From Octopus sinensis (lineage: Eukaryota): a stretch of 64,000 nt of DNA. Position numbers and translations under genes: made by a program. Shown here one piece after another: positions 5,396-52,429 of this stretch. The stretch covers positions 112,530,001 to 112,594,000 of the forward strand of contig NC_043001.1 in assembly GCF_006345805.1 (NCBI RefSeq), in the 5' to 3' direction. The notes beneath the pieces were generated by a model, which made no database searches, had not been told where the DNA came from, and saw nothing but the letters and a program-made list of their open reading frames with translations. Numbering within the stretch: the first letter of the stretch is position 1; the number at the start of each line of letters is the position of its first letter.

Positions 5396-6150
5396 AGAAA
5401 TTAAATATAAAATATAAATTACAAAGTGGGACAAGAACGCAAAAACACACAAAGAGACGACACAAAAAAACAGACGGGTCACTCGAAGCCTCTAATCTTC
5501 AGTCGGAACCGGATCATCTTAGCAATTTCGGCTGTTTAATCTCGATATCACTCCGAGCCGGCCAGCCCCTAGGAAAAACTAAGCCAGAGGCATTAGATTT
5601 CTTGGAAAGAGGATCGAATGTATACGAAACAATCGACTTAAATTCGTTTGTCTGTTCTTGTTTGTCCCCTCTATGTTTAGCCCTTTGTGGGTAGTAAAGA
5701 AACATATATATATATATATATATATTATGGTAAAAACAGTAAGATAACAAAATAAAGAAAGAGACCTTAATATTATGTAAGTAGAGGAAATTTATCTGTA
5801 AAATAATATGTGACAATTATTCGGTAGCCAAGATAAAACTCTGAGTTTCGGATGCCGAGGTGGAAATCCACACCACCATCTCTTCGGTTATCTGGCCTAC
5901 AGATATATATATATATACATACATATGCACATGTATATGTGTGTGTGTGTGTCTTTTTATCTTCATCACCGCTTGACAACTGATATTGGTTTGTTTATAT
6001 TACGTAACTTAGAAGTTTGGCAAAAAGTGACCGATATTCTTAGTACTTAATTTTAAAAAGAAAAGATTAGAATTGGGATCGATCTGTTCGATTAAAGCCA
6101 TTCAAACCGGTGCCACAGCATGGCCGTGTTCCGAAGACTGAAATAAGCAA
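5197..6150 (+). mobile_element. Old family A SINE split by insertions into its central (TA)n
   Basis: Degenerate 5' half at ~5197-5318 (GGTTGTGTGGTTAAG...TTTGGTAGACAGTAACCGAAAGAA) and 3' half at ~5935-6150 (GCTTGACAACTGAT...GGTGCCACAGCATGGCCG...GACTGAAA). Between them are unrelated repeat fragments, including a family C tail (~5630-5702). Confidence 0.6.
5824..5900 (-). ncRNA. Type I hammerhead ribozyme-like motif, core variant CCGAAGA
   Basis: Minus strand: GTAGGCC-AGATAA | CCGAAGA | GATG..CATC | C-GAA | ACTC-A-GAGT | T | TTATCT-TGGCTAC. Helix I ~12 bp with bulges; helix III near-palindromic. Manual folding only. Confidence 0.6.
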
Positions 6151-6713
6151 ATGATATAAAATGAAAGATAAACACTGGCAGCAAAAGAGTTAAAAACAAC
6201 AAAGAAAATTCGGTGAAAAATGGGAATGAGTTCGCAGAGATAAGCACAAAGAAGAAAACAAAACACAAGAAGAAACGAAATTTTAAAAAATAACAAAAAA
6301 AAAAGAAAGAATAAAAGAAACGACAATACGCAGCACAAAAGAATAAAGTTTCTTTCATTTATTTAACGACTGGAATATTATTTCAAAGTTGTAAAATGTC
6401 AGATCGAATATTTGTCAGCCATATTTATGTTTCAGTTGCTTTCGAGTATACAGAACTTAAATGCCGAAAATAAACATAAAATGCTTCATCTAACAATATA
6501 AAGTTTTAATAGGTAAGCCTGAAAATTTTCAAAAACTACATTCGTCCTATTTCTCAAGGATAAAAACAAAGGGTGTGGGTGTGGCTGAAATATATACCTA
6601 TCTATCTATCTAGCTATCTGATTTTCAAATTTTTAAGTAAATCTATACGATATACACAGCAACCAGGAAACAGAAACACTGGCAAAGACTAATGCGTGAA
6701 TATATATACTATT

Positions 6714-7130
6714 ACTCTCTTTACTCTTTTACTCTTTTACTTGTTTCAGTCATTTGACTACGGTCATGCTGGAGCACCGCCTTTAGTCAAGCAAATCGAC
6801 CCCGGGACTTATTCTTTGTAATCCTAGTACTTATTCTATCGGTCTCTCTGCCGAACCGCTAATTTACGGGGTCGTAAACACACCAGCATCGGTTGTCAGG
6901 CAATGCTGGGGGACAAACACAGACACACAAACATACACGCACACATATATATATATATACATATATATACGACGGATTTCTTTGAGATTCCCTCTACCAA
7001 ATCCACTCAAAAGGATTTGGTCGGCCCGAGGCTATAGTAGAAGACACTTGCCCAAGGTGCCACGCAGTGGGACTGAGCCCGGACCATGTGGTTGATTAGC
7101 AAGCTACTTACCACACAGCCACTCCTGCGC
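6714..7130 (-). mobile_element. SINE family A (OK-like), full length
   Basis: Reverse complement of family A from ACTCCTGCGC (7121-7130) to the (TACTCTTT)n tail. Confidence 0.9.
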
Positions 7131-7143
7131 AAATAGGACTGTG

Positions 7144-7657
7144 AAAACAAGCAGGAAGGGCTGCTAAGCCTAAACGAGGTTGTGGTGGCCAACGCGTAAA
7201 TCAAGTTTGGACAGGAGACAGACAAGAACTCATCTTACTTGATCCAGCTACAACGGAGTAATTCTGATACGCACTCTATTATCTTTTTACTCTTTCGTTT
7301 TCTCTCTTCCTCTCTTATTCTTTGCCATCCCCTTCTTCCATTATTCTATCCTATTACTCTTTCGTTTGTTCTCTCTTAATCTTCTACCTCCTGTTTTTTC
7401 TCACTTATCCTATCTCCAATTTTTTCCTCTCCCCTTCACTCTGTCTGTCACTCTCCCTCTTTGACTCTTCCCCCGTTGTCCACGTAGCGACCATGAGACC
7501 ATCGGACATCTTTCTTCTCCTAGCTTGTGTTTCTTTATTTCTCTCCGTTGTAGATGGATCAAAGAAGACGTATTCTTGTCTGTCTCCTGTCCAAGCTTGA
7601 TTTACGCGTTCGCCACCACAACCTCGTTCAGGCTTAGCAGCCCTTCCTGTTGGTTTC
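7144..7657. repeat. Inverted pair of a ~110-bp unclassified repeat
   Basis: 7146-7258 is the diverged reverse complement of 7544-7655, with a pyrimidine-rich spacer. Confidence 0.75.
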
Positions 7658-7729
7658 ACTGTCCTCTTTGTGTTGCCAATTTTAACCGTCCACAAAATCC
7701 TGAATTTATTTAATTTGCTTTGCGAGAGC

Positions 7730-7916
7730 AACTGTTTTATCGAAAGCGTATATTGTTGTTAAATACTCGAAATAGGAGACTAGAAAAACAGCCAACAACT
7801 TATGAAAAGTTGTTTGTCTTGTTTTACATTTGTGTCTTTCGTTGTTCGAAAATATATTTCATATTCCATGTACTCGTACTTCGTATTTTTTGTTGTACAC
7901 GTTTCGTGACGTCCTG
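7730..7916 (+). repeat. Dispersed repeat, Penelope pseudo-LTR-like fragment
   Basis: Same family as the inverted pair at 10615-10962 (shared CATATTCCATGTACTCGTACTTCG and GTTTCGTGACGTCCTG). PLE assignment is inference. Confidence 0.55.
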
Positions 7917-8698
7917 AACTTGGTAATCCTAGACTTCAGATGTTACAAATATTTCTCGTTCGTTAGTCTGAAGTATTGTTTGCTTATGCGCACTGCCCTT
8001 ATGAGATGCATCTCTATTGTTGCATAGTGTGTCACGAAATACTAAAACATACGTAACAGATGAAGTACAAGAGTAGTAAGTCTATGTAAGTACAAGCGCA
8101 CACACACACTCACTCACACACAATCACGCACATACAGACACACAGACACGCATAAAGAAGTATGTGAATGGGTGAGTATATGAGCGTGCTTTTATGTATA
8201 GAAAGTGCACGTATAATTTTACCATTATATATGTGGAAACAATAAAATGTTTAAGTGCTCAATGCAGACGTCTGGGCCTTGGTATAGATACTGACGTATG
8301 ATGTATAAATATGCACAAACATACACAGACAGAACAGACACACGGGTACAGACACACACACACACACACACAAACGCATGCGCACACAAGCAAATACACA
8401 CACACATACAAAAACACGCACACACATATATCTGTGTGGCTGTGTATGTCTATGAATATATTATGTAACAAATCCAGTCCATTAGATAATGGATAAATTA
8501 TGCAAATATTGCCTTAAATAGAGACACGTTTAGACACATAGAAGTATACGTACAACGCGCGCGCACAGACACACACACACACGTGCACATATATACACAC
8601 ACATGTATATATACTTGCATATATATATATTTACATACATATATATGTATATACATGTATATATACATATACACACACAAACTCACACACACACACAC

Positions 8699-8744
<46 letters not shown>

Positions 8745-8745
8745 G

Positions 8746-8837
<92 letters not shown>

Positions 8838-50260: not shown

Positions 50261-50265
<5 letters not shown>
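50176..50265. repeat. ~40-bp-arm hairpin (fold-back)
   Basis: AATTTAAGAATTAAGGATAACTTCTTAATAAGGAATCTTAT / ATAAGATTCCTTATTAGAAGTTATCCTTAATTGTTAAATT, 9-nt loop, 1 mismatch and 1 indel. Confidence 0.9.
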
Positions 50266-50319
<54 letters not shown>

Positions 50320-51162
50320 TATATATATACGTGTGTGTGTCTTTATATCTGTGCTTATCCTCACCAACGTTCGATAGCCGGTGATGGTGTTTTATGTCCC
50401 TGCAAATTAGCAGTTCGGCAAGAAAAACCGATAGAATGAGTACAAGGCTTTAAAAATAAGTACTGGAATCGATTTATTCCAACAAAGATACAAGGCTCCA
50501 TCTTTGGGATGTAGTTATGTATGTATGTATGTACGTTTGGTAGTGTGGAGATTGCAATGAGAGTAGTGACTGAATGAGAAGAGCCTCTGGGGTGGACTCG
50601 AAGTATTAGGTTCTTTTGTCACAGTCAGACCAGTTAGAGGAGCATTAACCTAAAGTAAACGAGGGAATTGCATATTAGGGTGTAATGAAAGTAAGAAGAC
50701 TATAGGGAAAAGAAGAGCAGCGGATCTAAGCATGTTACACAAGATAGGGTCCCTAAAACAAAGAAAAAATGGACATGAGAAAACCAAAAATCAAAACAAA
50801 AGGGAAGATAACAGCATGAGTAGACGGATTGGGTGGGTGATGAATAAAGTGGTGTGGATGGACGGACATTACGGATGATAGTAGTTGTAGTGGGGGTATT
50901 GTTGTTGTTGTTGTTGTGGTGGTGGTGGTGTTGGTGGTTTTAGTAGTAGTAGTAGTAGTAGTAGCAGTAGTAGTAGTGGTAGTAGTAGTAGTAGTAGTGG
51001 TGGTGGTGGTGGTGGTGGTGGTAGTAGTATTAGTAGTAGTAGCTGGAGGTGACGGTGGTGATAGTAGTAGTTGTTTTAGCAGTAGTAGTTGTAGCAGCAG
51101 CGGCAGCATCAGCATCAGCATCAGCAGCAGCAGCAACAGCAACAGCAGCAGCAGCAGCAGCA

Positions 51163-51207
<45 letters not shown>

Positions 51208-51872
51208 ATGCTGGTGGTGGTGCTATTAAATGGCTGCGAAAGAAAAGCCATGGGGAAAATAGACAAAACATTTCCAAAGAAAAAAAAACAAAAACAAAAA
51301 GAGTAAAGAACAAACAACTATAACAATAACAACAACAACAACAACAACAACAACAGCGAAAAAAATGTATAAACGAGACCATGTGTGTCTGCCGGGGGAG
51401 GGAGGGAGGTGGAAAGGAAGGAACTTGGTAATGAGTTAGAGGCTCTGAGTAGCGACTGGCCGTTCGTTCTATCTTCTGCTATATAATGATAAAAGCAGGT
51501 GTCCTATTTTCCGGCCCATCGCTCAGTGACTAATCTGTAGACTAGAGGTTTGTATGGCCAACTCATCAATCAAAATATGCATTGTTTTTTCATCGGTCTG
51601 ACAGGTGGTGGGTCATCCGAATTTGGCAAGTTTTTGTCTCTTTGTTTGATTGCTTATTTGTATGTGTGTACGTGTGTGTGTGTGTATGTGTGTGTGTGTG
51701 TGTACGTGTGTGTGTGTACGTGTGTGTGTGTGTGTGTGTGTACCTGCTTGTCATGTATGTGTCTAAGCGTGTGTGTGTTTGTACGTGTGTCTATATGTAT
51801 GTGCTTATGTGTGAATATAGTTTCTCTTGTATGCTTCAGGATATATCTATGCATGTTTGTAATATTGTGTTT

Positions 51873-51910
<38 letters not shown>

Positions 51911-52244
51911 ATACATATGTGCAAGCGTGTGTGTGTGTGCATGCCTATGTGTTTACATGTGAGTGTAGCTTCATGTGTGTGTTTCATGATGTGTGTATAA
52001 GTAATATTTGTAATATTTATGTTTCTGTATGTATATGTGTACGTCAGGTTGTTTGTGTGTTTGTGTGTGTGCGTGTATGTGTGTGTATGTATGAATGCGT
52101 ATTTGTGTTTATATGCCTATCTATGTGACTATGTGTCTGCTACTTCATGCGTACCTCTCAAGACATGTGTATGTGTGTAAGAGTTGTACATGCGTGTGGC
52201 ATTTGTAAATTTATATATGCGGTTGTGTATGAATGCATGCATGT

Positions 52245-52278
<34 letters not shown>

Positions 52279-52394
52279 TGGTGAATATATGTATGCACTA
52301 TGTACATATAAGTAAGCTTATAGACTTCATGTATGTAATCTCAAGATATTTTTTTTCCTCTGTCTTCCCATCTTTGGATCTTTCCTTCTCCTAT

Positions 52395-52429
52395 GTTTCC
52401 GACGAAGAGCTCCGCTCGAAACGTTAAAC
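52395..52429 (+). ncRNA. Minimal type I hammerhead-like motif, core variant CCGACGA
   Basis: GTTT | CCGACGA-A | GAGC-TCC-GCTC | GAA | ACGT | T | AAAC, within a ~200-bp pLTR-like fragment (~52310-52522) ending at (TA)n. Confidence 0.65.

Follow-up and report, generated by a model that had tools for sequence, protein, structure and literature searches.

Minimal type I hammerhead motifs with C at core position 4 in three unrelated repeat families of the Octopus sinensis genome

Three C4 motifs and their copies

The window considered here is a 64-kb stretch of the 2.72-Gb Octopus sinensis genome (NC_043001.1, positions 112530001-112594000), which carries three hammerhead ribozyme motifs with a catalytic core of CCGANGA in place of the canonical CUGANGA, that is, with C instead of U at position 4 (C4 instead of U4). 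A sequence-only reading of the window had placed these cores correctly: CCGAAGA at 5887-5881 (minus strand), CCGATGA at 50009-50003 (minus strand) and CCGACGA at 52399-52405 (plus strand). The other core positions are canonical in all three. Each motif lies in a copy of a different repeat family, here called A, B and C, and these families are indeed unrelated, as had been proposed, since their copies have only chance words of 7-13 nt in common and the best cross-match has an E value of 0.21. All three follow the type I order: after the core come helix II, GAAA, helix III (short and palindromic), UH and a 3' arm that pairs with the 5' arm. By sequence and descriptor, they belong to the minimal type I hammerheads, one from each family. 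Self-cleavage is a candidate activity of the C4 motifs. The Rfam hammerhead models gave no match at E<=10 on any of the three C4 stretches.

The family A copy (5720-5897, minus strand, ends approximate) is the 5'-truncated 3' end of a likely Hydra-like Penelope element, with (TA)n runs on both sides. Its motif (5827-5896) has helix I arms at 5896-5888 and 5836-5827, C4 at 5886, helix II at 5880-5851 followed by an extra C at 5850, GAAA at 5849-5846 and a palindromic helix III at 5846-5838, with U17 at 5837 and a predicted cut at 5837/5836. The family B copy (49810-50215, minus strand) lies between (TA)n runs, contains the greater part of a non-coding, circularly permuted unit of 482 bp, and is joined by a short inverted 5' piece (50212-50265, plus strand), an inverted junction typical of Penelope-type insertions (PMC8557442). 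Its motif (49949-50016) has helix I arms at 50016-50010 and 49955-49949, C4 at 50008, helix II at 50002-49972, GAAA at 49971-49968 and helix III at 49968-49957, with A17 at 49956 and a predicted cut at 49956/49955. The family C copy (52345-52522, plus strand, ends approximate) is a short 3' terminal piece of an element that is very abundant and carries a (TA)n tail. Its minimal motif (52395-52429) pairs 52395-52398 with 52426-52429 in helix I and has C4 at 52400, an extra A at 52406, helix II at 52407-52417, GAAA at 52418-52421, a CG palindrome at 52422-52423, U16.1 at 52424 and U17 at 52425.

All three motifs have GAAA and an A15.1-U16.1 pair, and their NUH cleavage triplets are GUU (A), AUA (B) and GUU (C). 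The predicted helix III self-duplexes have energies of -7.4 (A), -11.2 (B) and -1.7 (C) kcal/mol. The description of the helices as otherwise well paired holds best for B, where 96% of helix cells are paired across six B-type sequences, compared to 21-46% in slid controls. It holds less well for C, which has a 4-bp helix I and only 1 bp past A15.1-U16.1, and for A, where an additional pyrimidine stands before G12; the strict scan overlooked this motif. The G10.1-C11.1 pair is present in B and C; its register in A is ambiguous because the extra nucleotide, C or U, precedes G12.

Position 4 across the genome

Family counts were made from whole-genome pattern matches with position 4 left free, the letters being tallied by hand; the matches listed are mostly on the first contig. 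For family A (3,399 matches), positions 4 and 5 read CG in 80, TG in 15, CA in 2, AG in 1 and GG in 2 of the 100 matches listed. All 43 matches were tallied for family B, with CG in 28, TG in 13, CA in 1 and AC in 1. Family C is the most numerous (13,090 matches), with C at position 4 in 61, T in 38 and G in 1 of the 100 listed. A second family C sample was defined by a flank motif (11,463 matches) that avoids fixing the core; 89 copies were recovered, and the 80 that cover the core carry C in 40, T in 39 and A in 1. Three further families were counted in the same way, again with 100 matches listed for each: D (3,254 matches) has T in 87 and C in 13, G (2,186 matches) has CG in 74, TG in 13, CA in 10 and others in 3, and F (150 matches), which serves as a control, has no C4 at all and TG in 88. 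Extrapolated from these exact patterns, the six families together hold about 12,800 C4 and 8,700 U4 copies.

A consensus of U4 with C4 at background frequency is thus not what is found in A, B or C, and the suggestion that C4 is tolerated or selected, and not a product of random decay, is borne out by these counts. Less successful was the idea of three T-to-C events in the copies at hand: C4 is common to many or most copies of each repeat family and was likely inherited from amplified parent lineages. As judged from these sequences, there are amplified C4 lineages in at least five families of this genome.

A relaxed descriptor was also run on 1.95 Mb of fetched sequence, much of it picked for the targeted families, and gave 192 motifs, compared to a mean of 1.4 in shuffled sequence, where no match had C4. 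Purines at position 4 were rare (3 of the 192 motifs). A strict descriptor found only two motifs in 600 kb of untargeted sequence, both U4. Family G, with a 3-bp helix II and a GNRA loop, was encountered in DNA flanking other families (L182:198-235, on C1 near 52721200, and L145), and another hammerhead group consists of two copies, one C4 and one U4 (L080:352 and L330, minus strand, 2197).

Subfamilies and direction of change

Are the U4 copies simply decayed C4 copies? In family G this appears to be so: TG and CA are found in 13 and 10 of the 100 matches listed and are thus nearly symmetric (p=0.68), as CpG decay would make them, and C4 would then be the state of the parent, or master, element. 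In families A (15:2 among the matches listed) and B (13:1), TG exceeds CA (p about 0.002). In family C, the matches with an altered G5 number only 605 (CA in 66 of the 100 listed), compared to the 13,090 matches of the family, and CpG decay therefore explains about 400 of some 5,000 U4 copies.

U4 and C4 copies differ in flank markers, each set having its own. In family C, 35 of 37 copies with one flank marker pair have C4, as opposed to 1 of 36 with the other (p=3e-17). In family D, the 11 C4 units checked, from three tandem arrays with a 540-545-bp period, share diagnostic changes that are absent from the 12 U4 units compared. Both states have therefore been amplified from parent elements, and the U4 copies of A, B and C appear mostly to form subfamilies of their own.

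Two distant relatives of B carry U4 (about 75% identity for the one in L043), and within B itself 10 U4 copies form a clade nested among C4 copies (FastTree support 90), so that position 4 also moves back. In A and C, the U4 groups, which mix subfamilies, are more diverged than the C4 groups. The tree of C requires two changes at position 4 and that of A, which is poorly resolved, eight. From these patterns we infer that the direction of change was from U to C, with repeated independent origins and one return to U.

Carrier elements

The family A motif lies about 200 nt 3' of the stop codon of an open reading frame (ORF) that combines a reverse transcriptase (RT) with a GIY-YIG domain (L182/L183). 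The translation has RT-like motifs, DKT, a CxCX5C linker, CxxC, CxH and, at its C terminus, GIY-YIG, the match to the last being weak (E 0.011, below the Pfam cut-off). Pfam gave no RT hit in this ORF and a PDB sequence search with it gave no match; its Atlas neighbors at 0.95-0.98 carry HTH_animal, RVT_1 and GIY-YIG. Many family A copies are 100% identical over 98 nt, and the copies have (TA)n flanks and often occur in outward-facing inverted pairs. By these sequence features, family A is likely a Hydra-like Penelope element with the motif 3' of its ORF.

Families B and D have the make-up of retrozyme-like elements. The B unit is non-coding and has inverted 5' pieces; among the 43 matches there were no same-strand pairs at unit spacing and no direct tandem of two complete motifs. 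Family D forms tandem arrays of 540-560-bp units, each with a complete hammerhead, the C4 arrays included, and in one subfamily C4 was present in every unit checked. Arrays of D (window 14800-15080; L261-L270, L359, L360) often occur as inverted array pairs.

Longer family C copies reach 5' into CA-rich sequence. No coding partner was found for B or C, the ORFs near their motifs (L194, L063, L089, L092) being inconsistently placed. Fragments of a second RT/GIY-YIG element resembling the family A protein occur near family C copies (L063:625-1290, L089:845-1417, L092:2049-2636), without a consistent link. In families A and G, inverted-duplication junctions often lie close to the hammerhead 5' arm, at distances from a few bases up to 80 (L039/L040, L125/L126 and the matches listed for A and G). 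L044 (C9959:15265-15701) is a 40-bp tandem array whose repeat derives from the family A hammerhead, namely its 5' half.

Constraint on the motif

In the flank-defined sample of family C (n=80), position 4 is the sole ribozyme column out of 34 with a minor allele in at least 10 copies, compared to 15 of 70 flank columns (p=0.002, position 4 excluded). Changes at the other core positions are scattered and largely of the CpG type. That, among the ribozyme columns, polymorphism between subfamilies is limited to position 4 points to purifying selection on the motif along the parent lineages, in this one family. Predicted monomer folds seldom leave the core open, with P<=0.05 in all nine cases. The idea that C4 hides the core by alternative pairing better than U4 does was dropped, as there was no consistent direction over the nine motifs.

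Sequencing runs and possible RNA editing

Family A is present in 19 public sequencing runs from six studies with four organism labels. One contig of 1,638 nt spans the family A motif with five differences, all away from position 4, and a divergent U4 copy is visible in a loose end. C4 thus also occurs in contigs from independent public runs. The runs consist of contigs of guessed RNA status and are therefore uninformative on cleavage.

In two runs guessed to be RNA (X4 and X10), the contig differences over L182:3400-5300 are almost only A>G and T>C, at 72 of 88 places in X4 and, in a comparison of four runs, at 31 of 34 (X4) and 31 of 37 (X10). This is the pattern expected of A-to-I editing on both strands, a possible cause. 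Editing as a source of T>C in integrated copies is unsupported by the family A ORF copies (18 pieces), where C>T and G>A stand at 4.7 and 3.5 per 1000, versus 1.6 for T>C and 2.1 for A>G.

Relation to known hammerheads

CCGA cores have precedents in viroid-like RNAs. In peach latent mosaic viroid, U4C is reported to lower activity considerably in vitro, yet to permit infectivity (PMC3088659, Perreault 2011). CCGA occurs in four variants of the citrus-associated RNA CtaHVd-LR1, and a viroid variant is cited in the same paper as still self-cleaving (PMC9608096). It is also reported from five betaviroid-like RNAs and from zeta virus 1, for which in vitro cleavage was seen with the ribozymes of either polarity (bioRxiv 10.64898/2026.09.16.752053). 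These RNAs thus have the same core change, occurring naturally and reported to be compatible with self-cleavage or infectivity, but they are circular RNA replicons, with type III hammerheads where the type is stated, whereas the present motifs are minimal, of type I, and reside in animal retroelements with thousands of DNA copies. Hammerhead chemistry is not overturned by the C4 motifs, because CCGA was already known to cleave in viroid-like RNAs.

Closer in layout are the minimal hammerheads of metazoan Penelope elements (Cervera and de la Pena 2014, PMC4209133), which have the type I order, a short helix I, a palindromic 15.2-16.2 region for dimers, an NUH that is often GUU, an extra nucleotide after A9 (as in family C here), a position at the 3' end of the element and copies in opposite-strand pairs. 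They differ in the core, which is CCGANGA here, the core variant in that paper being U3-A8; the supplement text that was searched contained no CCGAUGA, CCGACGA or CCGAAGA, versus 45 instances of CUGAUGA or CUGAAGA. Hydra-clade elements (Craig et al. 2021, PMC8557442) resemble family A in DKT, CxCX5C, CxxC, CxH and C-terminal GIY-YIG, as well as in (TA)n flanks and inverted 5' copies, a likeness based on motifs from the published description. Their hammerheads are stated to be canonical, unlike the young family A lineages, which are C4 (80 of 100 listed). B and D resemble animal non-LTR (long terminal repeat) retrozymes (Cervera and de la Pena 2020, PMC7229834; Li et al. 2026, bioRxiv 10.64898/2026.07.22.740005) in being non-coding with one type I hammerhead per unit, the units being arranged in 540-560-bp tandems in D and permuted, with 482 bp, in B. 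They differ from retrozymes in the C4 core of B and of one D subfamily, and B also in having no direct tandem of complete motifs.

The core search of Craig 2021 used seq="^cuganga", alongside relaxed descriptors (PMC8557442). No paper was found that describes C4 as the state of a hammerhead family in Penelope elements or retrozymes, in a search that left subscription papers, Lunse et al. 2017 and part of the PMC4209133 supplement uncovered. Among the hammerheads of animal retroelements, fixation of C4 on such a scale appears to be unreported, although Lunse et al. 2017 may have position-4 variation in Penelope hammerheads on record. Searches with a fixed CUGANGA core, and Rfam, miss these motifs, which here amount by extrapolation to some 12,800 exact-pattern copies. 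Natural U4 and C4 sister subfamilies of one and the same Penelope-like element provide ready-made pairs for relating cutting, and how fast it is, to spread.

Why is C4 so common?

The probable answer, in our estimation, though not a secure one, is that minimal type I motifs end three unrelated high-copy repeats in which subfamily-wide C4 is a tolerated state, probably slower in cutting, that was copied from the parents. C4 would have arisen in parent Penelope-type elements and retrozymes and would then have been copied out with them. The ribozymes would cut precursor transcripts as dimers via the palindromic helix III, presumably with some activity retained by the C4 forms. Position 4 would be a two-state U/C site, close to neutral, drifting among parent lineages, and the remaining core would be kept by purifying selection.

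The sequence-only reading had argued that each T-to-C change creates a CpG against the usual direction of decay, an argument that proved weak. In the C4 subfamily of family C, CpG transitions amount to 6.5% per site, compared to 2.4% for non-CpG C>T/G>A and 2.5% for T>C/A>G, so that CpG decay is measured at only 2.7-fold, and the rough neutral share for a free U/C site is 28% C. CpG observed/expected is 0.58 in 600 kb of the genome. Of 17 untargeted groups in which position 4 is either U or C, 3 include C4 members (D, G and the two-copy group; one purine group was excluded), which fits the neutral share (p=0.43), in a set where most groups are single copies and about one may be a chance hit. 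Tolerance is favored over selection because CpG decay is only 2.7-fold and because C4 frequency across families fits neutrality. Selection for slower cutting retains some probability because the large families are rich in C4.

A number of points weigh against tolerance and retained activity. U4C considerably lowers activity in vitro, and tertiary contacts have been suggested to offset core changes of this kind (PMC3088659, Perreault 2011); no recognised tertiary contacts are found in the present minimal motifs. Canonical minimal Penelope hammerheads are already weak (PMC4209133), and single mutants of the CUGA region are reported to have had low activity when a type III hammerhead was scanned by mutation. 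Covariation in B, with one two-sided change, does not exceed that in shuffles (82 of 500), and the conservation test draws on a single family, sampled once by its flanks, with the core covered in 80 of 89 copies. The family A tree, with its eight changes, is poorly resolved, and the neutral share is built on mutation rates of dead copies and not of parent elements. Furthermore, the three largest families examined (C, A and G) are half or mostly C4. Divergence from the group's own majority is 12.6% for U4 and 7.1% for C4 in A, and 7.7% and 4.1% in C, in groups that mix several subfamilies; the C4 groups thus look younger, which, together with the C4-rich large families, hints at an advantage.

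Such an advantage is the basis of the strongest alternative, positive selection of C4 as a brake: with slower cutting, more transcripts longer than one unit would be left for the Penelope RT, and C4 lineages would out-amplify their U4 sisters. Penelope elements have been described as needing more-than-unit copies (PMC4209133), and the amplified C4 lineages in at least five families, the excess of extrapolated C4 over U4 copies in the six families and the lower divergence of C4 groups in A and C are all as expected. On the other hand, three of the six families were picked for showing C4, the C4 share in untargeted families fits neutrality, D is 87% U4 and F lacks C4 (100 matches listed each), and a U4 clade has expanded again inside B, all of which makes the brake unlikely. 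Equally doubtful is its extension, that a deliberately slowed CCGANGA hammerhead, tuning how much multimeric RNA survives for reverse transcription, evolves again and again in animal Penelope-type elements; this form would be the majority in the largest hammerhead families here and make up a large class unseen by CUGANGA searches, possibly including elements reported to lack hammerheads.

It is also conceivable, at a still lower probability, that the motif is retained for a role other than catalysis, such as RNA dimerisation or as an RT handle, leaving U4, which serves mainly the chemistry, free to change. Minimal Penelope hammerheads hardly cleave in the published work, which leaves other functions possible (PMC4209133), Naiad elements spread without canonical hammerheads (PMC8557442), and the predicted monomer folds rarely open the core. 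However, G5, G8 and G12 have only scattered, mostly CpG-type changes in family C, with none at the subfamily level, purines at position 4 are rare, and the sole change that spread is one reported as compatible with cleavage in viroid-like RNAs.

That C4 in the DNA is edited back to U in the RNA is very improbable: the heavy editing-like A>G and T>C in some runs' contigs suggests that RNA editing may act on these elements, but no U4-type change at position 4 reached 1% in contigs from four runs, of which three are RNA by guess, and edited RNA would return as T4, so that C4 would not amplify. Chance decay of U4 copies as the source of the three C4 cores can be practically dismissed, since copies do decay (T>C/A>G about 2.5% per site), but C4 stands at 50-80% in A, B and C and is linked to flank markers, while F has 0 of 100 among the matches listed.

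Other features of the window

Three U4 motifs, at 14919, 43330 and 52907, accompany the C4 motifs. The first is a family D motif (14912-14966, plus strand, ends approximate) with U4 at this site; a C4 tandem subfamily occurs elsewhere in the genome. The last belongs to the U4-only control family F (52904-52969, plus strand, ends approximate). The motif at 43330-43358 (plus strand) has the canonical CTGA that the sequence-only reading had ascribed to it, and is a distant, decayed relative of family C, with 76% identity to family C copies over about 70 nt and a helix I that pairs at one position only. A genome pattern search for this motif gave 9 matches versus 3 in the control and is uninformative.

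The GC content of the window is 26-45% in 2-kb bins, and microsatellites are abundant; they dominate both the whole-window Rfam scan and the repeat finder output. A copy resembling the U2 small nuclear RNA lies at 59966-60149 (plus strand, 90.9 bits) and lacks most of the first stem-loop, which makes it a likely pseudogene. A dispersed repeat of about 230 bp, presumably of the short interspersed element (SINE) type, has many copies in both orientations, with sites at 47589-47955, 37340-37605, 24191-24423, 48963-49199, 56002-56234 and 60773-61008, and occurs once as a 184-bp tandem.

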